Of a stretch of DNA of 64,000 nt, positions 5,026 through 24,762 are shown one piece after another (position 1 is the stretch's first letter; each line of letters starts with the position of its first letter). This DNA is from Escherichia coli (GTDB lineage Bacteria; Pseudomonadota; Gammaproteobacteria; Enterobacterales; Enterobacteriaceae), in assembly GCF_024298765.1 (NCBI RefSeq), contig NZ_CP101211.1; one strand, given 5' to 3'. The position numbers and the translations under genes are program-made. The notes below the pieces were generated by a model that saw only the letters and a program-made list of their open reading frames with translations, was not told the origin of the DNA and did no database searches.

Positions 5026-5051
5026 GCTGCCCCAATATTTTTTATGCTCTC
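5026..5051 (-). repeat. Right terminal inverted repeat of the ISKra4-family element
   Basis: Reverse complement matches 2201-2226 at about 21 of 26 positions. Confidence 0.7.
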
Positions 5052-5481
5052 GGTCGTATGGAAGCTGGACCGCCTCGGTCGTGATCTTCGTCATCTCATT
5101 AATACAGTGCACGACCTGACCGCGAGGGGGACCGGTCTGAAAGTGCTGACCGGTCACGGGGCGACTATCGACACAACAACGGCCGCTGGCAAGCTTGTCT
5201 TCGGTATCTTTGCCGCACTGGCGGAGTTTGAGCGCGAACTGATTGCTGAAAGAACGACTGCAGGTCTGGCATCAGCAAGAGCCCGTGGGCGGAACGGCGG
5301 CCGACCTTATAAAATGACGCCAGTCAAACTGCGACTGGCAATGGCATCAATGGGACAATCAGAAACAAAGGTCAGTACGCTATGCCAGGAACTTGGGATA
5401 ACCCGGCAAACTTTGTACAGGCATATTTCCCCTGTTGGTCAACTGCGGGCGGACGGGATCAAGCTGCTCAACCGTGGATAA
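5052..5481 (+). pseudogene. tnpR: Resolvase gene fragment lacking its 5' end including the catalytic Ser region
   Basis: Reading frame begins VVWKLDRLGRD immediately after the IS right repeat; C-terminal helix-turn-helix present, N-terminal about 60 codons absent. Confidence 0.7.
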
Positions 5482-5538
5482 TTTGAACGGACGGAAAAAT
5501 CTGGGGTTCCGGCGTAGTACCCCTATCACCTCCACATT

Positions 5539-5552
5539 TTTGCAACAGTGCC
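5539..5552 (-). repeat. Isolated IS26-type 14-bp terminal repeat (IS6-family end remnant)
   Basis: Exact TTTGCAACAGTGCC; the adjacent inner sequence resembles but does not match IS26. Confidence 0.4.
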
Positions 5553-5802
5553 TTATAAATGGCAGCCTTATGTTTACTTGCCAAGATGGGCTACCATATG
5601 ATGTTTTATACTGAGCAATATTAATATTATCTTTAATGGAAAAATTAAGCCCACTAAGTGACCCACTGCTATATGGCTCTATTGTGAAGACGCCTGAGGG
5701 TAAAAATTTATACATGGTTGTCCCTATGTCTATTATTGCAAGGTTGACAATATTATTCGTTTTATAAATTTGAGCGTTTAAAATCACACATCAAAGCAAT
5801 TA

Positions 5803-5866
5803 GTCAGGATAAACAACAATACCCAGTGCTTCGAGAATCAGTTCTTGCTGCCAGGCTGCAATTTTG
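5803..5866 (-). pseudogene. qnrS1: qnrS1 3' fragment (last 20 codons plus stop)
   Basis: Minus-strand translation KIAAWQQELILEALGIVVYPD* continues the 5' fragment at 8397-8994 across the 8-bp duplication. Confidence 0.85.
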
Positions 5867-6686
5867 GGCACTGTTGCAAAGTTAGCGATGAGGCAGCCTT
5901 TTGTCTTATTCAAAGGCCTTACATTTCAAAAACTCTGCTTACCAGGCGCATTTCGCCCAGGGGATCACCATAATAAAATGCTGAGGCCTGGCCTTTGCGT
6001 AGTGCACGCATCACCTCAATACCTTTGATGGTGGCGTAAGCCGTCTTCATGGATTTAAATCCCAGCGTGGCGCCGATTATCCGTTTCAGTTTGCCATGAT
6101 CGCATTCAATCACGTTGTTCCGGTACTTAATCTGTCGGTGTTCAACGTCAGACGGGCACCGGCCTTCGCGTTTGAGCAGAGCAAGCGCGCGACCATAGGC
6201 GGGCGCTTTATCCGTGTTGATGAATCGCGGGATCTGCCACTTCTTCACGTTGTTGAGGATTTTACCCAGAAACCGGTATGCAGCTTTGCTGTTACGACGG
6301 GAGGAGAGATAAAAATCGACAGTGCGGCCCCGGCTGTCGACGGCCCGGTACAGATACGCCCAGCGGCCATTGACCTTCACGTAGGTTTCATCCATGTGCC
6401 ACGGGCAAAGATCGGAAGGGTTACGCCAGTACCAGCGCAGCCGTTTTTCCATTTCAGGCGCATAACGCTGAACCCAGCGGTAAATCGTGGAGTGATCGAC
6501 ATTCACTCCGCGTTCAGCCAGCATCTCCTGCAGCTCACGGTAACTGATGCCGTATTTGCAGTACCAGCGTACGGCCCACAGAATGATGTCACGCTGAAAA
6601 TGCCGGCCTTTGAATGGGTTCATGTGCAGCTCCATCAGCAAAAGGGGATGATAAGTTTATCACCACCGACTATTTGCAACAGTGCC
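5867..6686 (-). mobile_element. IS26 (820 bp, complete)
   Basis: 14-bp terminal repeats at both ends, with tnpA on the minus strand. Confidence 0.95.
5919..6641 (-). CDS. tnpA: IS26 transposase
   Basis: Identical translation to the other IS26 tnpA copies. Confidence 0.95.
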   Translation of the reverse strand: MLMELHMNPFKGRHFQRDIILWAVRWYCKYGISYRELQEMLAERGVNVDHSTIYRWVQRYAPEMEKRLRWYWRNPSDLCPWHMDETYVKVNGRWAYLYRAVDSRGRTVDFYLSSRRNSKAAYRFLGKILNNVKKWQIPRFINTDKAPAYGRALALLKREGRCPSDVEHRQIKYRNNVIECDHGKLKRIIGATLGFKSMKTAYATIKGIEVMRALRKGQASAFYYGDPLGEMRLVSRVFEM

Positions 6687-6754
6687 CGCTTAAAAATAAT
6701 AAAAGCAGACTTGACCTGATAGTTTGGCTGTGAGCAATTATGTGCTTAGTGCAT

Positions 6755-6825
6755 CTAACTTTGTTTTAGGGCGACTGCCCTGCTGCGTAACATCGTTGCT
6801 GCTCCATAACATCAAACATCGACCC
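6755..6825 (-). other. attI1 recombination site of a class 1 integron, apparently with no cassette
   Basis: 5'-conserved segment ...GTCGCCCTAAAACAAAGTTAGAT followed on the cassette strand by what I recall as the start of the qacE cassette, cut by IS26 at 6686; boundaries approximate. Confidence 0.6.
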
Positions 6826-6894
6826 ACGGCGTAACGCGCTTGCTGCTTGGATGCCCGAGGCATAGACTGTACAAAAAAACAGTCATAACAAGCC

Positions 6895-7576
6895 ATGAAA
6901 ACCGCCACTGCGCCGTTACCACCGCTGCGTTCGGTCAAGGTTCTGGACCAGTTGCGTGAGCGCATACGCTACTTGCATTACAGTTTACGAACCGAACAGG
7001 CTTATGTCCACTGGGTTCGTGCCTTCATCCGTTTCCACGGTGTGCGTCACCCGGCAACCTTGGGCAGCAGCGAAGTCGAGGCATTTCTGTCCTGGCTGGC
7101 GAACGAGCGCAAGGTTTCGGTCTCCACGCATCGTCAGGCATTGGCGGCCTTGCTGTTCTTCTACGGCAAGGTGCTGTGCACGGATCTGCCCTGGCTTCAG
7201 GAGATCGGAAGACCTCGGCCGTCGCGGCGCTTGCCGGTGGTGCTGACCCCGGATGAAGTGGTTCGCATCCTCGGTTTTCTGGAAGGCGAGCATCGTTTGT
7301 TCGCCCAGCTTCTGTATGGAACGGGCATGCGGATCAGTGAGGGTTTGCAACTGCGGGTCAAGGATCTGGATTTCGATCACGGCACGATCATCGTGCGGGA
7401 GGGCAAGGGCTCCAAGGATCGGGCCTTGATGTTACCCGAGAGCTTGGCACCCAGCCTGCGCGAGCAGCTGTCGCGTGCACGGGCATGGTGGCTGAAGGAC
7501 CAGGCCGAGGGCCGCAGCGGCGTTGCGCTTCCCGACGCCCTTGAGCGGAAGTATCCGCGCGCCGGGCATTCCTGGC
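6895..7576 (+). pseudogene. intI1: Class 1 integrase gene truncated at its 3' end by IS26 (about 227 codons kept)
   Basis: Translation [44 protein letters not shown]... matches IntI1; reading frame runs into the IS26 repeat at 7577. Confidence 0.9.
6982..7010 (-). promoter_or_regulatory. Integron cassette promoter Pc, hybrid variant (-35 TGGACA, -10 TAAACT, 17-bp spacer)
   Basis: On the cassette strand: TGGACAtaagcctgttcggttcgTAAACT inside intI1. Confidence 0.7.
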
Positions 7577-8396
7577 GGCACTGTTGCAAATAGTCGGTGG
7601 TGATAAACTTATCATCCCCTTTTGCTGATGGAGCTGCACATGAACCCATTCAAAGGCCGGCATTTTCAGCGTGACATCATTCTGTGGGCCGTACGCTGGT
7701 ACTGCAAATACGGCATCAGTTACCGTGAGCTGCAGGAGATGCTGGCTGAACGCGGAGTGAATGTCGATCACTCCACGATTTACCGCTGGGTTCAGCGTTA
7801 TGCGCCTGAAATGGAAAAACGGCTGCGCTGGTACTGGCGTAACCCTTCCGATCTTTGCCCGTGGCACATGGATGAAACCTACGTGAAGGTCAATGGCCGC
7901 TGGGCGTATCTGTACCGGGCCGTCGACAGCCGGGGCCGCACTGTCGATTTTTATCTCTCCTCCCGTCGTAACAGCAAAGCTGCATACCGGTTTCTGGGTA
8001 AAATCCTCAACAACGTGAAGAAGTGGCAGATCCCGCGATTCATCAACACGGATAAAGCGCCCGCCTATGGTCGCGCGCTTGCTCTGCTCAAACGCGAAGG
8101 CCGGTGCCCGTCTGACGTTGAACACCGACAGATTAAGTACCGGAACAACGTGATTGAATGCGATCATGGCAAACTGAAACGGATAATCGGCGCCACGCTG
8201 GGATTTAAATCCATGAAGACGGCTTACGCCACCATCAAAGGTATTGAGGTGATGCGTGCACTACGCAAAGGCCAGGCCTCAGCATTTTATTATGGTGATC
8301 CCCTGGGCGAAATGCGCCTGGTAAGCAGAGTTTTTGAAATGTAAGGCCTTTGAATAAGACAAAAGGCTGCCTCATCGCTAACTTTGCAACAGTGCC
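7577..8396 (+). mobile_element. IS26 (820 bp, complete)
   Basis: 14-bp terminal repeats at 7577 and 8383-8396. Confidence 0.95.
7622..8344 (+). CDS. tnpA: IS26 transposase
   Basis: Identical translation to the other IS26 tnpA copies. Confidence 0.95.
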   Translation: MLMELHMNPFKGRHFQRDIILWAVRWYCKYGISYRELQEMLAERGVNVDHSTIYRWVQRYAPEMEKRLRWYWRNPSDLCPWHMDETYVKVNGRWAYLYRAVDSRGRTVDFYLSSRRNSKAAYRFLGKILNNVKKWQIPRFINTDKAPAYGRALALLKREGRCPSDVEHRQIKYRNNVIECDHGKLKRIIGATLGFKSMKTAYATIKGIEVMRALRKGQASAFYYGDPLGEMRLVSRVFEM

Positions 8397-8994
8397 CAAT
8401 TTTGATACCTGATGTATCGACTTTGCGGGGATCTAAACCGTCGAGTTCGGCGTGGCATAAATTGGCACCCTGTAGGCTAAATTGCCCCCAGACATCTTCG
8501 GAAAAAACACCTCGACTTAAGTCTGACTCTTTCAGTGATGCACCCGCTAGGTTCGTTCCTATCCAGCGATTTTCAAACAACTCACATTTTTCTAAACAAA
8601 CCCTCTCCATATTGGCATAGGAAAGATTACATCCAGAAATAAATGCTGAGCAAAAGTACATACGATTACTCACTTGATGGGCAAAGTTTGTTCGGGAAAA
8701 GTTGGCACCTTTTAAATCACACGCACGGAACTCTATACCGTAGCAATTGGCATTACTGAAGTTTGCCATCGCAAGTTGGCATTGTTGGAAACTTGCATCA
8801 CGAAGATCTGCGACATCAAAGTGGCAGCCTTCGATATCACCCTGTTCAATGAACTTGCAGTTGACGAATGTCGTATCACGCAAGTTAGCACGTCGAAAGT
8901 CGCTGCGAATGAATGTGCAAGCGGTGAAGGTGAGATCACTTAAGTCTTTATGTGAAAAGTTGTGGTGCCGATATGTATGATTGTAGGTTTCCAT
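8397..8994 (-). pseudogene. qnrS1: qnrS1 5' fragment (first about 199 codons), interrupted
   Basis: METYNHTYRHHNFSHKDLSDLTFTACTFIRSDF... pentapeptide-repeat protein matching QnrS1; the supplied ORF tail is read-through into the IS26 repeat. Confidence 0.9.
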
Positions 8995-9361
8995 GAGTAC
9001 TCCTTGTTGAAAGGAGGGCTAGACTACCATTATACATATGCCAAGACATTAAAATAAAAGCCTGTTACATCAACACATTACAACCCCTCAATTTACCTGT
9101 TTTAAGTGGTCAAATTGGCGCGTAGAGCGCCTATCGCTCTTGCATTGGCACGCGGCCCTGTTGAAAAAAGTTATTCGCTTTAGATAGGGTTAGGAGAGCC
9201 GTGCTTCGCCGGTAAAAAATCGGACTATCCGACGCAGGGCGGACTCATCGGCGGAGAAGCAAACTTTGACTATATCTCCCTACACTTGGAAGAGGGCTAG
9301 ACTGGCCCCATAGATCACCAGACACTTCGACTCTCTTAAAATAAGAGGTAGTCTTGGAACT

Positions 9362-10451: not shown

Positions 10452-13371
10452 CAACGTTTTCTGCCTCTGACGCCTCTTTTAATGGTCTCAGATGTCCTTT
10501 GGTCACCAGTTCTGCCAGCGTGAAGGAATAATGGCCGAGCATATTGATATGTCCGTGGCAAAGCGGGGAGAGGCGTGCGATATCTTCATCATTCAGTGTT
10601 TCACCCTGCGCCCGGAGATGATCCAGGGCTGCCTGCATATAAATAGTGTTCCATAACACGACGGCGTTAGTGACCAGCCCCAGTGTGCCCAGTTGATCTT
10701 CCTGACCGTCGGTATATCGTTTTCTTATCTCACCTTTTTGACCGTGACAGATGGCTCTGGCAACGGCATGGCGACTTTCTCCCCGATTAAGCTGGGTCAG
10801 AATGCGCCGGCGGTAATCTTCATCATCAATATAATTAAGCAGATACAGCGTTTTGTTGATGCGCCCCACTTCAATGATTGCCTGAGTCAGTCCGGAAGGA
10901 CGTTCACTTTTCAGCAATGAACGGACCAGCACTGAAACCTGTACTTTGCCCAGCTTCAGGGAGCCAGCGGTCCGGATCATTTCGTCCCACTGAAGGACTA
11001 TTTTTCGGGGATCTGATTGCCCTCTGGCAATATCATTCAGCACGCCATAGTCGGCATCATGGTCCATTCGCCAGAAAACCGAAGCACCGGCATCAGCCAG
11101 GCGTGGAGAAAACTGGTATCCCAGCAGCCAGAAAAGGCCAAAGACAAGTTCGCTGGCACCTGCTGTATCGGTCATAATTTCGGTTGGATTCAGCCCGGTC
11201 TCCTGTTCCAGAAGACCTTCCAGCACAAAGATAGAGTCCCTCAGCGTCCCCGGTATAACGATGCCATGAAAGCCGGAATACTGATCGGACACAAAGTTGT
11301 ACCAGGTGATCCCTCTGTTATTACCAAAGTATTTGCGGTTCGGTCCGGCATTGATTGTTCTGACTGGCGTAACAAAGCGCATTCCATCTGCAGATGCCAC
11401 TTCTCCTCCACCCCATATCTGTGCCAGTGGCAGCGTTGCCTGAAAATCAACCAGTCTGGCATTAGCGCTGGTGATAGTTTCAGCCCGCAGATAGTTCGCT
11501 TTTGTCCAGTTCAGCCGGTGTCGGGTCAGTGCAGGAACATTTGATCTGATCAGTGGTTCCAGACCGATATTGCAGGCTTCAGCCATCAGCACGGCGCTGA
11601 TGCTGACGGGCAGATCATCAACTCTGGCACTGGCTTCACTAGCATGGAAAAACTCATCAGCAAATCCGGTATGGGCGTTAATTTCGAGCAGCAACTCCGT
11701 TAAATCCACCGGAGGGAGTAGATCACTGATCATTTTGCTCAGTCGTTTCAGACTGTCCGGCTCATCAAGACTGGCGAGGGGAGAAATTGTCAACCGGGGC
11801 TTCGGGCCAGAAACATCGAGTTCGACAGCCTCATTTTCGCAAAGACGTGCAGCAACCTGTCTGTAACGACTATCAAGCTGATGACCCAGAGATTTTATTG
11901 CTTCCTGCGGGTCTGTCGGGTGCCCCAAAGAACGATAAACCTTAATCCGGTTTGCCTGCCAGTCAGCACCCTGTAGTAATCTTGCACGAGGATCTCCCCA
12001 CCGGTTACTGCCGGTAACGTAGACATCCCTCCGCCTCAGACTATCCTGCAGTTTACTGAGAAAGCAGAGCGTGTATCCCCTGCGGGTGATATGTTTTTCC
12101 TTGTTAATCACCAGCCGTTTCCATGACCGACTGATAATTTCCGTTGGTGCGTCGTCAAAAAACTGCCGCCGTGAGCTGAACTCCCGGCTGAGGTAGTCAC
12201 AGGCATTCAGAGTGGTAACCCCGGCAGGTGCGGATGAAAATTTAACGGTATTCAGCAGATGGGGCAGGAAACGACGAACGCGCCCGTACTGCTCCACCAT
12301 TTCTTCATGAAAATTATCGTCTGAGGGCCGGGCAATTTCACGGACAAGCGTGATGATTTCAGCCAGCTTTTGCCTTGGGATGTAGCTGAACACCTCAGCA
12401 CGAATCGATTCGTCCGGTGTTTCTTCTTTCAGCAGGTACGAACATGCGCTGGCGAGCGCCAATGCAGATTTATCCAGATCCTTCAGCGAGCGGAGCCGTT
12501 TTTTCTGCCCAATCTTTCTGGCGTCACGGATGATAACGGCCAGCATGGCGTCCAGAACGTCCAATGCATCATCCAGCGCCAGCGTTTCCCATGCAAGGAC
12601 AAAGGCAACCAGAACCGCCATCCTTTTCTGCGGTGACATCCTGGCAATATTGAACACCGAAGTCATACCAGCATAACGTGCGAGATTTTTCAGGCGCACA
12701 GCCGGGAGTGTACTCAGGTTTTCAGCATGCAGGCCAAAATCGTTCAGAGTTTTCCAGCGTTCAATTGCTTCATTAAACGCCGGACCACTGATGGTCACAG
12801 GGCCCTTTTTCAGTGATTCCAGTAAAGACAGGCGGCTGCAATCAGTTGGCCCCAGCAGCATCTCCAGCTGTGAACGCTGTTCGGCTGACGGTATCAGTGC
12901 CAGTTTGTTCCACAGGCGCAACGTCGCCTTTTCCCTTACCTCTGAAATCAACCGGGTCAGCGTAGTGGCTCCGGGGAGAATAATACGATGTTGCATAAGC
13001 CACCCTGTCGCCAGATCGAAAAGCAGGCCAGGACGTTCGTTGCTTATCCAGCTCCGGGTATATAAAAGACGGGTAAGGCGAAATGTCCAGGGCCAGGCAA
13101 ATTCACGATACTGATAGTGCTGACGTATCAGCGCTGCATGCTCACGGCGGGTATTTTCCCTCTGACCGTATTCTGCAAGAACGGTGATATCACGAATCCC
13201 GAGCTGTCTGGCGGTAAAATGCCGGACGCCGGAAGGAATATGATTCATATCGGTGAGGAAGGTGCCCAGAAAACGGACACATCCAATTTGCAGGGCAATG
13301 CCCAGACGGTTGTGATCACCTCTGCTTTTTCCGATAAATTCCTTGTCTGCTTCATCAAGGTGAAAATATCG
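10447..13371 (-). pseudogene. tnpA: Tn2/Tn3-family transposase lacking about 27 N-terminal codons (IS6100 insertion)
   Basis: Native sequence begins RYFHLDEADKEFIGKSRGDHNRLGIALQ...; the first 25 codons of the supplied ORF are IS6100 sequence. Confidence 0.85.
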
Positions 13372-14251
13372 GGCTCTGTTGCAAAAATCGTGAAGCTTGA
13401 GCATGCTTGGCGGAGATTGGACGGACGGAACGATGACGGATTTCAAGTGGCGCCATTTCCAGGGTGATGTGATCCTGTGGGCGGTGCGCTGGTATTGTCG
13501 CTATCCGATCAGCTATCGCGACCTTGAGGAAATGCTGGCGGAACGCGGCATTTCGGTCGACCATACGACGATCTATCGCTGGGTCCAGTGCTACGCCCCG
13601 GAGATGGAGAAGCGGCTGCGCTGGTTCTGGCGGCGTGGCTTTGATCCGAGCTGGCGCCTGGATGAAACCTACGTCAAGGTGCGGGGCAAGTGGACCTACC
13701 TGTACCGGGCAGTCGACAAGCGGGGCGACACGATCGATTTCTACCTGTCGCCGACCCGCAGCGCCAAGGCAGCGAAGCGGTTCCTGGGCAAGGCCCTGCG
13801 AGGCCTGAAGCACTGGGAAAAGCCTGCCACGCTCAATACCGACAAAGCGCCGAGCTATGGTGCAGCGATCACCGAATTGAAGCGCGAAGGAAAGCTGGAC
13901 CGGGAGACGGCCCACCGGCAGGTGAAGTATCTCAATAACGTGATCGAGGCCGATCACGGAAAGCTCAAGATACTGATCAAGCCGGTGCGCGGTTTCAAAT
14001 CGATCCCCACGGCCTATGCCACGATCAAGGGATTCGAAGTCATGCGAGCCCTGCGCAAAGGACAGGCTCGCCCCTGGTGCCTGCAGCCCGGCATCAGGGG
14101 CGAGGTGCGCCTTGTGGAGAGAGCTTTTGGCATTGGGCCCTCGGCGCTGACGGAGGCCATGGGCATGCTCAACCACCATTTCGCAGCAGCCGCCTGATCG
14201 GCGCAGAGCGACAGCCTACCTCTGACTGCCGCCAATCTTTGCAACAGAGCC
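13372..14251 (+). mobile_element. IS6100 (880 bp, complete)
   Basis: Terminal repeats GGCTCTGTTGCAAA at 13372 and at 14238-14251. Confidence 0.9.
13397..14197 (+). CDS. tnpA: IS6100 transposase (true start may be the Met at 13433)
   Basis: ...[39 protein letters not shown]..., an IS6-family transposase. Confidence 0.9.
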   Translation: MSMLGGDWTDGTMTDFKWRHFQGDVILWAVRWYCRYPISYRDLEEMLAERGISVDHTTIYRWVQCYAPEMEKRLRWFWRRGFDPSWRLDETYVKVRGKWTYLYRAVDKRGDTIDFYLSPTRSAKAAKRFLGKALRGLKHWEKPATLNTDKAPSYGAAITELKREGKLDRETAHRQVKYLNNVIEADHGKLKILIKPVRGFKSIPTAYATIKGFEVMRALRKGQARPWCLQPGIRGEVRLVERAFGIGPSALTEAMGMLNHHFAAAA

Positions 14252-14689
14252 CGCCGTGCTAGTCTGCTCGGTGATGGTGGAGTGAAGCCAACCCGCAATC
14301 GGGTTATGAATCTGCATCGCGATTCGCAATCAGCTGTCTCTTGAGCATGTCGAACTCCTGCGATGTTATCTCGCCGTGCTCGTGCTGCTACACCAACTTG
14401 TCCAACTCATCCGCCACACCGCTCCCCACCACCTGCGATGGCCAGGTTGTTTGCTGGGCGCATTGGCGGAGTATCGTCTCGACCCGGGACACCCACACCG
14501 GCACAACCTTACGGGAGTGATTCACTGTCAAAGAATCGGCCCGGTGCTCTGACGCAAGTATCGGGATGGTCACCATTTGTAAGCCGTAGACCTGAGTGGT
14601 GATCAAGACTTCGATACCACCGACCGTACCGGTACTAATCGACGACGGTCGTGTTCGTCGCCTGCCGCAGGGACTCTGCACACCTCCGT

Positions 14690-15274
14690 TTACGCATGTG
14701 CCTGGAGGAGTTGGAAATCGTCGTGTTCGGGAAACATTAAACACAGGATGGCAGCGATCTGAGCCAGCACATGATCAGCTAGCTCACCATCCGGATCGAC
14801 GGCCCACTGCATCGTCGCGCCAGCGATGACCGAGTGCAGGAGCAACTCAGCTGCCGCAGGAGCACCTGGGGGCAGTCGCTTGCGGATCCCCTCCACCACC
14901 GCGCGGTTCCGCTGGATCGCAAGCGTGCGTAGCTCCGGCACCTGGAGCTCGTACCAGGAGATGAGATAGTTCACCGAGAAGTCGTTGCGAGTGTTCATGC
15001 TCCGAACGAGCACCTGCAAAAATTCCCAGAGCCCTTGCGGCCCTGCGCCTATCGGTATCGCATTCAGGTAATGCCGCACCTGCTCGACGCCGCGCTCCAT
15101 CATCCTCACCAGCAGCGTATCGCGGTTGGTGAAGCGCTGGATTAACGCTGCGCGGGAGAGCCCCACCTCCTTTGCTACTCCGCTGAGCGTGAACTCTATG
15201 GGACCGCAACGCTTCAGCACTACGGTGGCGGCCTCGAGTACCTCGTCATCGGACTTGAGCTTGGGGCGGGGCAT
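14690..15274 (-). CDS. mphR(A): TetR-family repressor MphR(A)
   Basis: Identical to the 75-659 copy. Confidence 0.9.
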   Translation of the reverse strand: MPRPKLKSDDEVLEAATVVLKRCGPIEFTLSGVAKEVGLSRAALIQRFTNRDTLLVRMMERGVEQVRHYLNAIPIGAGPQGLWEFLQVLVRSMNTRNDFSVNYLISWYELQVPELRTLAIQRNRAVVEGIRKRLPPGAPAAAELLLHSVIAGATMQWAVDPDGELADHVLAQIAAILCLMFPEHDDFQLLQAHA

Positions 15275-16512
15275 CAGTGTTCACCTTCTGTATGGGTTGG
15301 GGCGGAGGCTGTGGCTGCCGCCGCCATTGTAGCAAATTGAAGACGGAGCGAGAGTAGAGCCACGAGCCCCGCAAACACGGCCGATACAACGAGGCCAGGG
15401 AGCGGACCAGCAAGGTCGACAAACGCGCCGGCCGCAAGCATAACCATGGGCGAGGCTGACAGCATCACCGCCGAGACCGTGCCGAGTACCCGGCCGAGAA
15501 GTTCTGGCGGCGTGCGGTTGTAGATGGCAGCGTTGAGAATGGGAGAGACTGAGCCGGTCAGCAGTCCCACGAGCGCGCCCAACAACATCAGCACCGGCAC
15601 GCCTGGCAACTGTGAAAGCAGAAGCGAGCCCACCGCAGAGCCACAAAATGCCACCGCCAGCCAGTTCTGCGCTGATATCCGGGCGCCGACCGACGCATGA
15701 ATGGCAATGCCAAGGAGACCACCAGCCCCCATCATTGAGGAGAACAGCCCGAGCTCTGCTACTTGGCGTCCTGCATCTACAAACAGCGCAGGCATGATGA
15801 CGCTGCCGTTGGCGCCAACGATGCCCACGAAGATCATCACTATACCAAAGAGAGGGCGCAGCAGGGGTTCGCTCCAGAGAAAAGCGACGCCGGCGCGCAT
15901 GGAGAGAGTCGCCGTCGTGGTCATCGTCCGAGCGGCACGCGCGGGAAGCACCCACGCGCCGAGCAGACCTGCAAGGACGGAGCAGAACGCCGTCAGCCCG
16001 AGCGTTGGCGCAGCGCCAAGCAGGCCGATTGCGGCCCCCCCAAGGGCCGGGCCACCTAGAATCGCGACGTTCCCGATCACCGCTTTCAGTGACGAGACGC
16101 GCTCAACGGAGAGCCCGGCGACGTGGCCGAGTTTGGGCAGCTCACTGTCCTGCGCGGCCATACCGGGTGCGTCGAACGCGGCACCGAGCACCACGCAAGC
16201 GATCAGCCCAGTGTTCGAGAGGGCGCCAACGGCATCGAGCAGTGGGATGCTCGCCATGGCCACGCCGCCCACCACACCCGAGATCAATGCGACGGGCGCG
16301 CGCCCGAACCGATCGACGAGGCCACCACCAACCCACGCGCCGATGATGGTCGCGATGACGCTGCTAGCGGCCGTGGCGCCCGCCCAGGCCGCGCTCTTTG
16401 TATGAGACAGGACGAACCATGGAAGCGCGAGGGCCGCCACCGCGTTGCCGATCCGGAAGAGAAAGGTCGCCGCGAACAGCGTCGCGAGCGGGCTATATCG
16501 ACGTTCGCTCAT
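15274..16512 (-). CDS. mrx: Mrx, MFS-type membrane protein of the mph(A) operon
   Basis: 412-aa hydrophobic ORF between mph(A) and mphR(A) with overlapping stop and start codons. Confidence 0.85.
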   Translation of the reverse strand: MSERRYSPLATLFAATFLFRIGNAVAALALPWFVLSHTKSAAWAGATAASSVIATIIGAWVGGGLVDRFGRAPVALISGVVGGVAMASIPLLDAVGALSNTGLIACVVLGAAFDAPGMAAQDSELPKLGHVAGLSVERVSSLKAVIGNVAILGGPALGGAAIGLLGAAPTLGLTAFCSVLAGLLGAWVLPARAARTMTTTATLSMRAGVAFLWSEPLLRPLFGIVMIFVGIVGANGSVIMPALFVDAGRQVAELGLFSSMMGAGGLLGIAIHASVGARISAQNWLAVAFCGSAVGSLLLSQLPGVPVLMLLGALVGLLTGSVSPILNAAIYNRTPPELLGRVLGTVSAVMLSASPMVMLAAGAFVDLAGPLPGLVVSAVFAGLVALLSLRLQFATMAAAATASAPTHTEGEH

Positions 16513-17414
16513 TCCGCTGCGGCGAGCTGCGCCTTCGCCGCAGCGAGGTACTCTTCGTTACCCGAGTCGAGGGCGAAGAGTGCGTAGGTGACCGCCCCGA
16601 ACGCAAGGCGCTCCGCGATGTGGTGGGCGAGCCGCGGCCACACCCGGCCACCGGCCGCTTCATACGTGAGGAGGAGCTTCGCGAGCCCCTCTTCACCAAA
16701 GACCATAAGGTGCGCGGCCATGTCGATGGCAGGGTCATCAACGCGGGCCTCGCTCCAGTCGATCATCCCGCTGACGCGCTCCGTGTTGTCGATGAGCACA
16801 TGGCCCACGTAGAGATCGCCATGCACCACCACGGAGAAATCTGGCCACGACGAATCGTCGTCGAGCCAGCGCTGCCACCGGTGGAGGCGCTTGTCGTTCA
16901 CCACGAACTCGCGTCGGACGCGGTCAACGTCGTCGGCCACCTTCTGACGGGCCTGCGTCGGTGTACGGATGAGCATCCCCGCATCCACGGCGGCGGAAAT
17001 GGGGACGGCATGCAGGGCGGCGAGCGCGGTCGCGAAGCTCTCCGCGAAGACCTCCGAGTCCTGCGGCACGACCCAGTCGGGCGTGGACGAACCAGGCTGG
17101 ATGACCATCGCAGTCGAGTCTTCGAGCATGGGATAGGCAACGAGCTCGGCGTTGGCCACGCGCCAGTCCGGCACCGCGAACGGCAGGCGATTCTTGAGCA
17201 TTGCCAGCACCCGCGCCTCTGGTTCGACCTTCGCGCTTACCTCGGCTCGGCGCGGGATGCGCAGCACCCACCGACGTCCATCGTCGACGGTGGCGATCAC
17301 GATCCTATAGTCGAGCCCAAGCTCATTGACAGTCAGCGGGCCATGGAGCTTGAGCCCATGTCGGGCTGCAAGTGCGTACAGTTGGGAGGTATCGGCGGTC
17401 GTGACTACGGTCAT
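16509..17414 (-). CDS. mph(A): Macrolide 2'-phosphotransferase Mph(A)
   Basis: 301-aa ORF MTVVTTADTSQLYALAARHGLKLHG...HGDLYVGHVLID..., an APH-like kinase fold. Confidence 0.9.
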   Translation of the reverse strand: MTVVTTADTSQLYALAARHGLKLHGPLTVNELGLDYRIVIATVDDGRRWVLRIPRRAEVSAKVEPEARVLAMLKNRLPFAVPDWRVANAELVAYPMLEDSTAMVIQPGSSTPDWVVPQDSEVFAESFATALAALHAVPISAAVDAGMLIRTPTQARQKVADDVDRVRREFVVNDKRLHRWQRWLDDDSSWPDFSVVVHGDLYVGHVLIDNTERVSGMIDWSEARVDDPAIDMAAHLMVFGEEGLAKLLLTYEAAGGRVWPRLAHHIAERLAFGAVTYALFALDSGNEEYLAAAKAQLAAAE

Positions 17415-17446
17415 GATTCACTCCTGAGGGCTTGACGGGTTTAGCC

Positions 17447-17480
17447 ACCTAAATGTAACAGTCACGTCGGTTATATTCAA
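17447..17480 (-). promoter_or_regulatory. mph(A) promoter and MphR(A) operator region (pseudo-palindrome)
   Basis: AATATAACCGACGTGACTGTTACATT pseudo-palindrome directly upstream of mph(A); limits approximate. Confidence 0.45.
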
Positions 17481-17483
17481 TCC

Positions 17484-18303
17484 GGCACTGTTGCAAAGTT
17501 AGCGATGAGGCAGCCTTTTGTCTTATTCAAAGGCCTTACATTTCAAAAACTCTGCTTACCAGGCGCATTTCGCCCAGGGGATCACCATAATAAAATGCTG
17601 AGGCCTGGCCTTTGCGTAGTGCACGCATCACCTCAATACCTTTGATGGTGGCGTAAGCCGTCTTCATGGATTTAAATCCCAGCGTGGCGCCGATTATCCG
17701 TTTCAGTTTGCCATGATCGCATTCAATCACGTTGTTCCGGTACTTAATCTGTCGGTGTTCAACGTCAGACGGGCACCGGCCTTCGCGTTTGAGCAGAGCA
17801 AGCGCGCGACCATAGGCGGGCGCTTTATCCGTGTTGATGAATCGCGGGATCTGCCACTTCTTCACGTTGTTGAGGATTTTACCCAGAAACCGGTATGCAG
17901 CTTTGCTGTTACGACGGGAGGAGAGATAAAAATCGACAGTGCGGCCCCGGCTGTCGACGGCCCGGTACAGATACGCCCAGCGGCCATTGACCTTCACGTA
18001 GGTTTCATCCATGTGCCACGGGCAAAGATCGGAAGGGTTACGCCAGTACCAGCGCAGCCGTTTTTCCATTTCAGGCGCATAACGCTGAACCCAGCGGTAA
18101 ATCGTGGAGTGATCGACATTCACTCCGCGTTCAGCCAGCATCTCCTGCAGCTCACGGTAACTGATGCCGTATTTGCAGTACCAGCGTACGGCCCACAGAA
18201 TGATGTCACGCTGAAAATGCCGGCCTTTGAATGGGTTCATGTGCAGCTCCATCAGCAAAAGGGGATGATAAGTTTATCACCACCGACTATTTGCAACAGT
18301 GCC
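17484..18303 (-). mobile_element. IS26 (820 bp, complete)
   Basis: 14-bp terminal repeats at both ends. Confidence 0.95.
17536..18258 (-). CDS. tnpA: IS26 transposase
   Basis: Identical translation to the other IS26 tnpA copies. Confidence 0.95.
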   Translation of the reverse strand: MLMELHMNPFKGRHFQRDIILWAVRWYCKYGISYRELQEMLAERGVNVDHSTIYRWVQRYAPEMEKRLRWYWRNPSDLCPWHMDETYVKVNGRWAYLYRAVDSRGRTVDFYLSSRRNSKAAYRFLGKILNNVKKWQIPRFINTDKAPAYGRALALLKREGRCPSDVEHRQIKYRNNVIECDHGKLKRIIGATLGFKSMKTAYATIKGIEVMRALRKGQASAFYYGDPLGEMRLVSRVFEM

Positions 18304-18596
18304 AGAGCGAGGCCCATTGACGCCACAACGTAGGCGAGGCCACCTCCCAGTAGAACGGGGCGGCGCCCCAGTCGGTCCGATAGCGGTCCAAACAAGAGCT
18401 GACCGGCACCAATCATGACCAAGTACGTTGTCAGCGTAAGCTGAATTGTGCTCGCTGTCGTACCAAGCGCGTTTGGCATAAACGGCACTGCTGGCAAGTA
18501 CATGTCCATGCCGAGTGATGCCAATAAATCGAACGGTGATAACAACAACACCGTGGCGGCAAGGGAGTACCGCCAACTAAAGTTTTTTGAGCGCAC
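18304..18596 (-). pseudogene. cmlA: cmlA chloramphenicol exporter gene, only the first about 97 codons (GTG start), cut by IS26
   Basis: VRSKNFSWRYSLAATVLLLSPFDLLASLGMDMYLPAVPFMPNALG... matches the CmlA N-terminus. Confidence 0.8.
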
Positions 18597-18916
18597 GAAA
18601 CCATCTCCTTGAACAAAGGATTTGGCGGCGCTCCCGTAGAGCAAAAGGATTCATGAGAACGCCGCAACAACCGAAAAATGAAGGTTGCTGCGGCTTACTT
18701 GTCTGCGTTCTTGGAAGTGCTCATCTGCTGACTATCTCATGATTGAATTTGAATCGTAACAACTTTCAAGCAACTCTGCGAGGAGCCTTATTGTGCGCCC
18801 AACGCCGCCATAAACGGCGACAGGGTGGCGCGCCTATTGCGCATAAAATGGCGAAGCCATGCGCAACAGGCGCGGAATCTCTGGCGTCCGGTTTGATGGC
18901 TTTGTTATGCAAAGGA

Positions 18917-19369
18917 CTAGTCTTCAATGACGTGTAAACCACGGCGCTTTAAGTCCTCTAACGAATCCAACATTCCCCTTATTAATTCAACAGGATGCCC
19001 CTCCCAGTCTTCAACAACGCCAACAATTCTCAAGGGTTCGCAGGTTCTATAGGACTGTGTTGGATTACCGGGAAATTTTTTGTTCGTAAGATTCGGATCG
19101 TCTTCGAACGGTCCTGTTGGCTCAACTATGTATATGTAGCCGCGACCCTCGAGGCCAGACAGTGACATAGCAAGTTCAGCTCCCCAAACTGCTGGCTCCA
19201 TCAAGGCTGAAAAGTAGATGTGCTTAAGAATACGACCGTCCTCGAAATGAGAGATGAACCCTGTGGTTAGCAAGTCACCAATCGCCAAATTGGCTTTGGT
19301 TCCATGATAGAACGGTCCTTGCACCTGCTTGTAATTATCATGAGAGATGGGAATCCAATCTTTTACCAT
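18917..19369 (-). CDS. arr: Rifampin ADP-ribosyltransferase Arr (arr-2 or arr-3 group)
   Basis: 150 aa from MVKDWIPISHDNYKQVQGPFYHGTKANL...; the supplied ORF extends upstream into the attC. Confidence 0.8.
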   Translation of the reverse strand: MVKDWIPISHDNYKQVQGPFYHGTKANLAIGDLLTTGFISHFEDGRILKHIYFSALMEPAVWGAELAMSLSGLEGRGYIYIVEPTGPFEDDPNLTNKKFPGNPTQSYRTCEPLRIVGVVEDWEGHPVELIRGMLDSLEDLKRRGLHVIED

Positions 19370-19399
19370 TTTAAGACCCTTAATTGTTGGGATTTGGCT

Positions 19400-19479
19400 G
19401 CATAACGTCGCTATCAATCGCGGAAAAGGCGTAGTGCGCGAAGCGAACGAAGCTTTTTGCCGTCGATTGCATAGCTTTG
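19400..19479 (-). other. attC of the dfrA cassette (approximate)
   Basis: Imperfectly palindromic stretch between the dfrA stop and arr, ending in a GTTATGC core. Confidence 0.4.
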
Positions 19480-19962
19480 TTAACCCTTTTTCCAAATTTG
19501 ATAGCAATAGTTAATGTTTGAAGTAAAGTGTTGCTCAAAAACAACTTCGAAGGTATTTGGAATACTCGGGAAGAAAACATCCCCCTCTGGCTCGATGTCG
19601 ATCGTCGATAAGTGGAGCGTAGAGGCCATGGGTAATGTTTCTCGGTAAATTTCTCCGCCACCAGACACTATAACGTGACCGGTGAATTCAGCTAGCCTGT
19701 CCATGGCCTCTTCGATTGACTGAAATACAACTACATTGTCATCATTTGATGTCCAACCTGAGCGGGTAACGACCGCGTATTTCCTATTGGGGAGTGCGCC
19801 CATAGATTCAAACGTCTTGCGACCCACCAGAAGCCACTGATTGTAGGTCAATGCTTTAAAAAGTAGCTGCTCCCCTTTCGCGGACCAGGGTATGTCTGGA
19901 CCGCAACCAATCACGCCGTTTTTCGCTTTCGCAGCCATCAATGATACTTTCAAGGTTCTCAT
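19480..19962 (-). CDS. dfrA14: Trimethoprim-resistant dihydrofolate reductase DfrA (dfrA5/dfrA14 group)
   Basis: 160-aa [58 protein letters not shown]...; first cassette after attI1. The allele is a best guess from the dfrA-arr-cmlA order. Confidence 0.7.
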
Positions 19963-19967
19963 CCTGG

Positions 19968-20040
19968 GTTAACTTTGTTTTAGGGCGACTGCCCTGCTGC
20001 GTAACATCGTTGCTGCTCCATAACATCAAACATCGACCCA
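19968..20040 (-). other. attI1 (second copy) with the GTTAACC cassette junction
   Basis: Same 5'-conserved segment as 6755-6825 but joined to the dfrA cassette. Confidence 0.6.
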
Positions 20041-20108
20041 CGGCGTAACGCGCTTGCTGCTTGGATGCCCGAGGCATAGACTGTACAAAAAAACAGTCAT
20101 AACAAGCC

Positions 20109-20553
20109 ATGAAAACCGCCACTGCGCCGTTACCACCGCTGCGTTCGGTCAAGGTTCTGGACCAGTTGCGTGAGCGCATACGCTACTTGCATTACAGTTT
20201 ACGAACCGAACAGGCTTATGTCCACTGGGTTCGTGCCTTCATCCGTTTCCACGGTGTGCGTCACCCGGCAACCTTGGGCAGCAGCGAAGTCGAGGCATTT
20301 CTGTCCTGGCTGGCGAACGAGCGCAAGGTTTCGGTCTCCACGCATCGTCAGGCATTGGCGGCCTTGCTGTTCTTCTACGGCAAGGTGCTGTGCACGGATC
20401 TGCCCTGGCTTCAGGAGATCGGAAGACCTCGGCCGTCGCGGCGCTTGCCGGTGGTGCTGACCCCGGATGAAGTGGTTCGCATCCTCGGTTTTCTGGAAGG
20501 CGAGCATCGTTTGTTCGCCCAGCTTCTGTATGGAACGGGCATGCGGATCAGTG
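20109..20553 (+). pseudogene. intI1: intI1 truncated after about 148 codons by IS26
   Basis: Same N-terminus as the 6895 copy; reading frame enters the IS26 repeat at 20554. Confidence 0.9.
20196..20224 (-). promoter_or_regulatory. Pc cassette promoter, hybrid variant (TGGACA / TAAACT)
   Basis: Identical to 6982-7010; drives dfrA-arr. Confidence 0.7.
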
Positions 20554-21373
20554 GGCACTGTTGCAAAGTTAGCGATGAGGCAGCCTTTTGTCTTATTCAA
20601 AGGCCTTACATTTCAAAAACTCTGCTTACCAGGCGCATTTCGCCCAGGGGATCACCATAATAAAATGCTGAGGCCTGGCCTTTGCGTAGTGCACGCATCA
20701 CCTCAATACCTTTGATGGTGGCGTAAGCCGTCTTCATGGATTTAAATCCCAGCGTGGCGCCGATTATCCGTTTCAGTTTGCCATGATCGCATTCAATCAC
20801 GTTGTTCCGGTACTTAATCTGTCGGTGTTCAACGTCAGACGGGCACCGGCCTTCGCGTTTGAGCAGAGCAAGCGCGCGACCATAGGCGGGCGCTTTATCC
20901 GTGTTGATGAATCGCGGGATCTGCCACTTCTTCACGTTGTTGAGGATTTTACCCAGAAACCGGTATGCAGCTTTGCTGTTACGACGGGAGGAGAGATAAA
21001 AATCGACAGTGCGGCCCCGGCTGTCGACGGCCCGGTACAGATACGCCCAGCGGCCATTGACCTTCACGTAGGTTTCATCCATGTGCCACGGGCAAAGATC
21101 GGAAGGGTTACGCCAGTACCAGCGCAGCCGTTTTTCCATTTCAGGCGCATAACGCTGAACCCAGCGGTAAATCGTGGAGTGATCGACATTCACTCCGCGT
21201 TCAGCCAGCATCTCCTGCAGCTCACGGTAACTGATGCCGTATTTGCAGTACCAGCGTACGGCCCACAGAATGATGTCACGCTGAAAATGCCGGCCTTTGA
21301 ATGGGTTCATGTGCAGCTCCATCAGCAAAAGGGGATGATAAGTTTATCACCACCGACTATTTGCAACAGTGCC
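20554..21373 (-). mobile_element. IS26 (820 bp, complete); right edge of the resistance region
   Basis: 14-bp terminal repeats at both ends. Confidence 0.95.
20606..21328 (-). CDS. tnpA: IS26 transposase
   Basis: Identical translation to the other IS26 tnpA copies. Confidence 0.95.
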
Positions 21374-23519: not shown

Positions 23520-24762
23520 TATTAACGGGGCCTATGCGGCATTTGAGTGTGCGATGGATCCCAAGCTGGCAAAAAAGCCGCTCATCATAGCCAGCAATAA
23601 CGATTCGTCCGTCATTGCAATGAATAAACTGGCTAAAAGCGTTGGTATTAAGCGTGGGACCCCAATTTTTAAGTGCAGGGATTTGATTCAGCAACACCAG
23701 ATCGAAGTCCGGAGCTCTAACTTTACTTTGTATGAAGACTACTCAAATCGCTTCCATGAAACGCTGGAAAGCTTCGCGCCTCAATCGAGTCGATATAGCA
23801 TAGATGAAAATTTCATGTTATTGAAAAACATGAACAAGATAATAGATTATGAAGATTACGGCCGGTTGATCAGAAGTACACTTCTTCATAATCTGTCCCT
23901 TACCTGTGGTGTGGGGTGTTCAAGCACCAAAACCCTGGCTAAATTATGCACCTATGCGAGCAAACGATGGGCAGCTACAGGCGGGGTTGTAGTTTTGACT
24001 GATCAGGCCAGGATCAGGAAGCTCCTGGGCCTTATCAGTACCAGAGAAATATGGGGTATTGGTCAAAAGATCAGTGAACGCCTGTCGGCTTTCGGGATCA
24101 TCACTGCCGGTGATTTTTATAATAGCGACGTTCGCTTTTTACGTAAAAGCTTTGGCGTTGAAATCGAGCGTACCTGGCGGGAACTGCATGGCGAACCATG
24201 TTTCCGGCTGCATGAATCCCCTCCTGTCCGGCAACAGATTATCGTTTCCAGAAGTTTTGGTCAGCGCCTTAATGAGATAGGCAAGCTACATGAGGCAGTT
24301 TCATTTTTTACCGCCCGGGCGGCAGAGCAGCTGCGCAAGGATGGCTCGTGGACCCGTCAAATCACAGTCTTCATTCAGAGCAGCAATTATGCGCAAGGTG
24401 AAAACCGCTACAGCAATTGTGGTATCGAGCCGCTTACCGCTACACAGGACACCCGCGATCTGGTTGATGCAGCCATGACCATCCTGAACCGCATTTACAA
24501 ACCCGGGATAGCGTATGCGAAAGCTGGGGTAATGCTCTCCGCTATGACTGACGGCACAGAGCAACTCAGCCTGTTTGATGAGCGCCCGGCCAGGCCTGGC
24601 AGTCAGGCACTGATGAAAGTTATGGACCGGTTCAATAAAGAAAAGCGCGGAGCTCTGTTTTTGCTGGGGGAAGGCATTCAACAGGATTTTCGTATGAAAC
24701 AGGCCATGCTATCACCGAGATATACGACCCGCTGGGATGAATTACTCGTTGTAAAAGCGTAG
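23503..24762 (+). CDS. umuC: UmuC/MucB-like Y-family DNA polymerase
   Basis: 419-aa ORF starting ...HVDINGAYAAFE... with a typical Y-family layout. Confidence 0.8.
   Translation: MYMHVDINGAYAAFECAMDPKLAKKPLIIASNNDSSVIAMNKLAKSVGIKRGTPIFKCRDLIQQHQIEVRSSNFTLYEDYSNRFHETLESFAPQSSRYSIDENFMLLKNMNKIIDYEDYGRLIRSTLLHNLSLTCGVGCSSTKTLAKLCTYASKRWAATGGVVVLTDQARIRKLLGLISTREIWGIGQKISERLSAFGIITAGDFYNSDVRFLRKSFGVEIERTWRELHGEPCFRLHESPPVRQQIIVSRSFGQRLNEIGKLHEAVSFFTARAAEQLRKDGSWTRQITVFIQSSNYAQGENRYSNCGIEPLTATQDTRDLVDAAMTILNRIYKPGIAYAKAGVMLSAMTDGTEQLSLFDERPARPGSQALMKVMDRFNKEKRGALFLLGEGIQQDFRMKQAMLSPRYTTRWDELLVVKA

Follow-up and report, generated by a model that had tools for sequence, protein, structure and literature searches.

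Resistance regions in Enterobacterales are organized chiefly by the insertion sequence IS26, which is generally held to mobilize passenger genes only when its bounding copies are directly repeated. Pseudo-compound transposons of IS26, such as PTn4352 and PTn6020, were reportedly set out by Harmer, Pong and Hall in 2020. An element bounded by inverse copies, Tn6023, is said to have been described by Cain and Hall in 2011 with aphA1b as its passenger on plasmid pSRC125, and was reportedly flanked by an 8-bp duplication in that original paper. Two later reports describe Tn6023 as a 2.6-kb element that has aphA1 between inverse IS26 copies and lies within Tn5393 on a plasmid of type IncHI2 (PMC6657655, PMC10333595). 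IS26 is known to form cointegrates by copy-in, to delete or invert DNA within a molecule, to undergo targeted conservative recombination, and to recombine between copies through RecA (PMC7986276). Here we analyze a stretch of 64,000 nucleotides from Escherichia coli (contig NZ_CP101211.1 of assembly GCF_024298765.1; hereafter “the window”) in which the quinolone resistance gene qnrS1 is split by a 2530-bp unit with an IS26 copy at each end, the two in inverse orientation. Our analysis indicates that this unit probably transposed as one piece and entered an IncHI2-borne qnrS1 at codon 200.

The insertion in qnrS1 and its target duplication

The interrupted gene lies on the minus strand. Its 5' fragment occupies 8397-8994 (start codon at 8994; codons 1-199 plus one nucleotide) and its 3' fragment 5800-5866 (the last two bases of codon 200 to codon 218, with the TAA stop at 5800-5802), the latter joining in frame with 8405-8994. 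An original prediction, made by a model from the sequence alone, had recognized this split but placed the 3' piece at 5803-5866; with the stop codon it is 5800-5866. Between the two fragments lie the left IS26 (5867-6686, minus strand; tnp26 from its ATG at 6623 to its stop at 5919), an interior of 890 bp (6687-7576), and the right IS26 (7577-8396, plus strand; tnp26 at 7640-8344). The predicted content of the insert, 2530 bp with two complete inverse IS26 copies around attI1 and a truncated intI1, agrees with both the sequence and an inverted-repeat search.

Both bounding copies are 820 bp long and carry the perfect 14-bp terminal inverted repeats GGCACTGTTGCAAA that characterize IS26. Reverse-complemented, the left copy equals the right at every base, and the same sequence recurs in two further full copies in the window, at 17484-18303 and 20554-21373. 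Each bounding copy contains a single transposase gene, tnp26, of 705 nt, without any mismatch to copies annotated as WP_001067855.1 (“IS6-like element IS26 family transposase”). As the copies are inverse, the right inverted repeat (IRR) stands at both outer ends (5867 and 8396) and the left inverted repeat (IRL) at both inner ends (6686 and 7577).

The octamer CAATTTTG is present in direct orientation at both outer ends, at 5859-5866 abutting the IRR end of the left IS26 and at 8397-8404 abutting that of the right. It thus flanks the pair and neither copy alone, and it has the 8-bp length of an IS26 target-site duplication. The octamer was found three times in the window versus about five expected; its abundance carries no meaning, its position does. 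Two given octamers match by chance with a probability of 4^-8, or approximately 1.5e-5 (about 1 in 65,000). When 5800-5866 is joined to 8405-8994 on the minus strand, a 657-nt open reading frame (ORF) for the 218-aa QnrS1 is obtained. More broadly, deletion of 5867-8404 produces an 863-bp stretch (5700-5866 plus 8405-9100) that matches the uninterrupted qnrS1 of the IncHI2 plasmid pXJW9B277-HI2-N at 863/863 positions without gaps, and that is 99.9% identical to the qnrS locus of p30COLEC-1. Because removal of the insert restores both this identity and the full-length protein, the CAATTTTG pair is a genuine target-site duplication flanking an insertion of 2530 bp. The perfect direct repeat across which qnrS1 had been predicted to be split is therefore exact in the sequence, in the in silico rejoining, and in the alignment to relatives.

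The locus has the structure of a compound transposon, with two insertion sequences, a passenger, one duplication of the length typical of the insertion sequence, and an otherwise intact target. It does not have that of a pseudo-compound transposon, in which direct IS26 copies allow a translocatable unit to form, as the two copies here are exact reverse complements of each other.

These junctions also bear on whether the insertion is an artefact of assembly, in which identical IS26 repeats were collapsed or mis-joined and an IS26-bounded block was misplaced into qnrS1. The classic causes of such mis-joins are at hand: within 21 kb lie four full IS26 copies that are identical, a fifth that is truncated, and another intI1/attI1 segment. 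Both outer junctions are also unique among the collections that we searched (see below). However, a mis-join cannot yield an 8-bp duplication whose collapse restores the gene base-perfectly, and both junctions fall exactly at IS26 termini. We consider an artefact very improbable.

Origin of the insertion

Inside the pair, the flanks of the two IS26 copies are CGCTTAAA and TTCCTGGC, which are unrelated to CAATTTTG or to its complement CAAAATTG. This matters for the customary explanation of inverse IS26 pairs, namely a single intramolecular IS26 inversion, or recombination between inverse copies, without any composite movement (PMC7986276, PMC13098264). Such an event would suit a region around which an mphR(A)-IS6100 segment of 1418 bp is duplicated in inverted orientation. 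However, an inversion is expected to leave inverted target copies, one inner and one outer, whereas here both are outer and direct and the inner flanks are unrelated; recombination between IS copies, for its part, cannot alter which IS end abuts a flank. Taken together, these routes have very little probability. A single IS26 inversion, judged by its published signature (PMC7986276), is ruled out by the inner flanks and the direct outer octamers. Geometry rules out recombination between IS26 copies, a double crossover involving a linear IS26-X-IS26 fragment, and insertion by the targeted conservative route, since none of the three sets an IRR against a flank that a single insertion would leave beside an IRL.

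On the established mechanism, every known IS26 reaction should preserve the existing junctions between IS ends and their flanks (PMC7986276). A single IS26 insertion would create one IRL and one IRR junction, and an IRR on both sides of one octamer would need a transfer with two IRR ends. As the same duplicated octamer here meets an IRR on both sides, strand transfer with two IRR ends appears to be required.

We propose that the substrate would have been a pre-existing element consisting of IS26 (inverse), 73 bp of cassette-side sequence, attI1, the cassette promoter Pc, the truncated intI1, and IS26. The IS26 transposase, Tnp26, would synapse the two outermost IS26 ends, both of them IRR with the same 14-bp terminal repeat, and would carry out the usual copy-in (replicative) strand transfer into the staggered 8-bp target CAATTTTG. 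Homologous recombination between the 2.5-kb copies would then resolve the cointegrate, or re-invert an intramolecular product, and the end state would be a simple insertion with a direct 8-bp duplication. Movement as a composite, which the original prediction had suggested, is the most economical account given the IRR outer junctions, the inner flanks, and the presence of an identical unit elsewhere.

The distribution of the unit was assessed with a query spanning both inner junctions (6537-7726), with the PLSDB ranking sampled at even spacing. Single full-length matches at 100% identity end between ranks 85 and 170 of that ranking, and complete E. coli genomes contain 46 single-piece records with both inner junctions. 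The whole 2530-bp unit is 100% identical in pGSH8M-2-3. It mostly adjoins a fosA3 module, and it is also present in IncHI2 plasmids, being carried by ps11011-CTX (IncHI2) and pX1-13 (IncHI2-related), so that a donor within the same plasmid lineage is plausible. The search for the same IS26-attI1-intI1-IS26 unit that had been proposed as a check thus finds it in many plasmids, with flanks that differ among them. Because the identical unit, or its inner junctions, occurs so widely, the unit is older than its insertion in qnrS1. We also note a variant with 330 bp more, in which the left IS26 is accompanied by an additional partial “IS6 family transposase” fragment. It occurs in several plasmids (e.g., NZ_CP020547.1), and the sole chromosomal match to the unit is of this longer form, in E. 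coli NZ_CP104629.1, within a larger fosA3/ISCro1 region.

Matching outer octamers were found in none of 14 other copies of the unit that we inspected on IncF, IncI, IncX1, IncR, and IncHI2 plasmids, a small sample relative to the roughly 100-170 records. The modules flanking these copies include fosA3, mph(A), oqxB, pemK, and blaTEM. Searches of PLSDB with 300-bp queries for both outer junctions returned only two-piece matches with different spacing (qnrS1 cut by IS26 elsewhere), as did a 300-bp query for the left outer junction alone against complete E. coli genomes. Exact 40-mers of both outer junctions had no match in GTDB species representatives or JGI metagenomes, and the 234-aa product of the fusion between qnrS1 and IS26 had no record in a gene-position index. 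The insertion is unique among the collections searched, with no precursor, sibling, or source record found.

The product could also have been assembled stepwise. A single IS26 would insert into qnrS1 with its 8-bp duplication, a replicon carrying the integron would fuse with it through the right IS26 of the unit (by homologous or targeted conservative recombination), and the left IS26 would then make an adjacent deletion with exactly the 8 bp beside the resident IS26 as its target. This pathway yields the observed product on paper; cointegrates and adjacent deletions are common IS26 reactions (PMC7986276), and the window holds five IS26 copies or remnants in a heavily rearranged resistance region. 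However, the final step must strike one 8-bp target, a chance of about 1 in 10^5 for a plasmid of such size. Furthermore, IRR and IRL share only 14 bp, and the identity between reacting ends that the targeted reaction needs (PMC7885326) is absent. Finally, a single IS26 at the CAATTTTG site was not found in either orientation in PLSDB, complete E. coli genomes (left junction), GTDB representatives, or JGI metagenomes. We regard the stepwise route as unlikely, and transposition of the unit as one piece as the probable origin of the insertion.

Several points nonetheless weigh against our interpretation. We know of no experiment on Tnp26 pairing two IRR ends 2.5 kb apart. The window contains no donor copy of the unit, only a 584-bp common integron segment at 19970-20553, and the 14 other copies without a target duplication provide no second independent insertion as proof that the whole unit is mobile. 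The loss of QnrS1 function discussed below is a prediction from homologues. In addition, a review of the IS6 family states that its functional compound transposons always have directly repeated insertion sequences (PMC7986276).

The interrupted gene, the integron remnant, and the surrounding plasmid

The 5' fragment of qnrS1 keeps its own start and upstream region, and the ORF that it opens runs to 234 aa (8290-8994, minus strand), with QnrS1 residues 1-199 fused to a tail of 35 residues that the IRR end of IS26 supplies. An uninterrupted 657-nt ORF is missing; the gene is split after codon 199 and is 100% identical to qnrS1 once rejoined. QnrS1 can be aligned over its full length with AhQnr and QnrB1, and the break corresponds to AhQnr residue 198. 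Small C-terminal deletions reportedly abolish the activity of QnrB1 (Jacoby et al., 2013). The AhQnr dimer is built from a strand at 195-199, a helix, and a strand at 211-215 (PMC3089455). By alignment, the split QnrS1 is predicted to lack the helix and final strand of this C-terminal dimerisation motif (PMC3089455, PMC7897471). Given this removal, the inactivation stated in the original prediction is a reasonable reading, and the product most likely no longer protects gyrase.

The 598-nt 5' fragment represents 91% of qnrS1 at 100% identity and would pass permissive coverage cut-offs, which bears out the concern that gene-presence screens would misreport this locus. Resistance prediction by gene presence would report qnrS1 here though its product probably has no activity, and it is better to flag split or partial hits than to count them.

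The interior of the insert is a remnant of a class 1 integron, of which attI1 and Pc are present while intI1 (6895-7576, plus strand) is cut by IS26 after nucleotide 682 of 1014, or 227 of 337 codons. Truncated IntI1 without its C-terminal third, which includes the catalytic part, is presumed to be inactive. The attI1 site lies at approximately 6756-6820 on the minus strand (G|TTAG crossover point at about 6756-6760), an extent that we take from established knowledge. Positions 6756-7576 correspond to 6992-7812 of p30COLEC-1, where intI1 is annotated at 7131-8144, and homology to cassette-bearing integrons (p30COLEC-1; window 19970-20553) starts at 6756.

Next to attI1 are 73 bp of cassette-side sequence (6687-6759, minus strand), cut by IS26 at 6686/6687; the original prediction for the interior was correct as to attI1 and the truncated intI1, and did not mention this piece. 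Read from 6759 to 6687, it matches two places in pNDM-1fa at 100% identity, namely the beginning of the 3' conserved segment (3'-CS), which precedes qacEdelta1, and the 5' end of the aac(6')-Ib-cr cassette. Within pNDM-1fa, a comparison of 20500-20640 with 23592-23732 shows that qacEdelta1 (at the start of the 3'-CS) and the aac(6')-Ib-cr cassette gene are preceded by identical stretches of approximately 100 bp. As the two are identical, the source of short remnants adjoining attI1 is ambiguous. The 73 bp fit the aac(6')-Ib-cr cassette as well as they fit an empty integron, with attI1 joined to the 3'-CS.

A promoter scan places Pc (TGGACA-17-TAAACT) at 6982-7010 on the minus strand, directed leftward through attI1 to the IRL end and tnp26 of the left IS26; a scan of 6600-7100 for terminator-like sites found none. 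A hybrid promoter-like site near 6673-6700 (TTTGCA in the IS26 IRL, 16 nt, AATAAT) is directed toward the truncated intI1. More tentatively, the locus might be a natural record of Tnp26 pairing IRR ends 2.5 kb apart and hence of a true compound transposon, contrary to the family review (PMC7986276), with read-through from Pc into tnp26 perhaps raising transposase in cis and aiding both the spread of the unit and the whole-unit event; we hold this possibility to be doubtful.

A second integron remnant lies at 17484-21373 between direct IS26 copies, with a truncated cmlA6, arr-2, dfrA14, attI1, and an intI1 cut after about 445 nt. Its segment 19970-20553 matches 6756-7339, and its intI1 cut point differs from that of the qnrS1 insert.

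With respect to the wider plasmid, 21400-46000 matches IncHI2 backbones of Escherichia, Salmonella, Enterobacter, and Klebsiella at 100% identity. Positions 1-21373 hold a resistance mosaic rich in IS26, of which pXJW9B277-HI2-N and p30COLEC-1 are close relatives. Both have an intact qnrS, which is qnrS1 in pXJW9B277-HI2-N and is annotated as qnrS13 in p30COLEC-1. Among the parts of the mosaic are mph(A)-mrx-mphR(A), IS6100, ISKpn19, a Tn3-family tnpA fragment, and the dfrA14-arr-2-cmlA6 remnant integron.

Several other features of the mosaic are of note. The perfect 1418-bp inverted duplication of mphR(A)-IS6100 occupies 1-1418 and 13931-15348; its left copy runs off the start of the window, and its right arm belongs to a complete IS6100-mphR(A)-mrx(A)-mph(A)-IS26 module at 13373-18303. 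The qnrS1 region between the arms could be inverted by recombination. A truncated IS26 at 1419-2200, comprising the first 782 bp from the IRL end and lacking the last 38 bp, abuts a truncated IS6100 at 1418/1419, a junction shared with pXJW9B277-HI2-N. Approximately 250 bp downstream of qnrS1, at 5539-5552, a perfect 14-bp IS26-type terminal repeat, TTTGCAACAGTGCC, stands alone without an IS body. The stretch containing it is 100% identical in pXJW9B277-HI2-N and p30COLEC-1, and because these relatives have an intact qnrS, this lone repeat predates the insertion. A 468-bp stretch at 5052-5519, which takes in the greater part of a resolvase-like ORF of 145 aa (5044-5481), is shared with p30COLEC-1 and absent from pXJW9B277-HI2-N. 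Finally, between the Tn3-family tnpA fragment and IS26, positions 13244-17483 hold IS6100 and the inverted mph(A) module, versus blaCTX-M-55 and ISEcp1 in pXJW9B277-HI2-N; the tnpA fragment is truncated by IS6100 (from 13373).

Comparison with described systems

Blocks with the same 890-bp interior and the same inner junctions, in which a truncated intI1 and attI1 lie between two IS26 copies, stand beside fosA3 on F-type, IncI, IncX1, and IncHI2 plasmids (e.g., pHK23a, pHNAH4-1, pGSH8M-2-3, ps11011-CTX). However, each IS26 there is shared with a neighboring module (fosA3, mph(A), oqxB, blaTEM, or pemK) and the outer octamers differ; those blocks look like a by-product of IS26 mosaicism rather than a discrete insertion.

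Pseudo-compound transposons resemble the insertion in qnrS1 in being bounded by IS26, in often having an 8-bp duplication, and in relying on Tnp26 and host recombination (PMC7986276, PMC12802963). In contrast, they have direct IS26 copies and move through a translocatable unit, or through a cointegrate formed by one IS followed by recombination with the other copy, neither of which the inverse orientation here permits.

In Tn10/IS10 and Tn5/IS50, as here, the outer ends of inverse insertion sequences act together and a target duplication typical of the insertion sequence flanks the insertion. Those elements, however, transpose by cut-and-paste, whereas IS26 is known only to form cointegrates (PMC7986276), and for this reason a recombination step would be needed to arrive at a simple insertion.

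The closest parallel is Tn6023, which is treated as a composite transposon and shares with the unit a similar length, inverse IS26 copies around a short passenger, and insertion as a unit into another element on an IncHI2 plasmid (PMC6657655, PMC10333595). The passenger of Tn6023 is a resistance gene, whereas ours is a non-functional remnant (attI1, Pc, and a truncated intI1) and the target is qnrS1; the net effect is a probable loss of a resistance function rather than a gain. On our interpretation, the locus would be a further natural example, after Tn6023, of copy-in transposition from the outer IS26 ends (IRR/IRR) followed by recombination, and the 2530-bp unit offers a short, well-defined substrate for measuring outer-end IS26 transposition. 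With Tn6023 as a named precedent, which the original prediction did not mention, such an insertion is out of the ordinary and departs a little from textbook accounts, yet the element itself belongs to a known kind.

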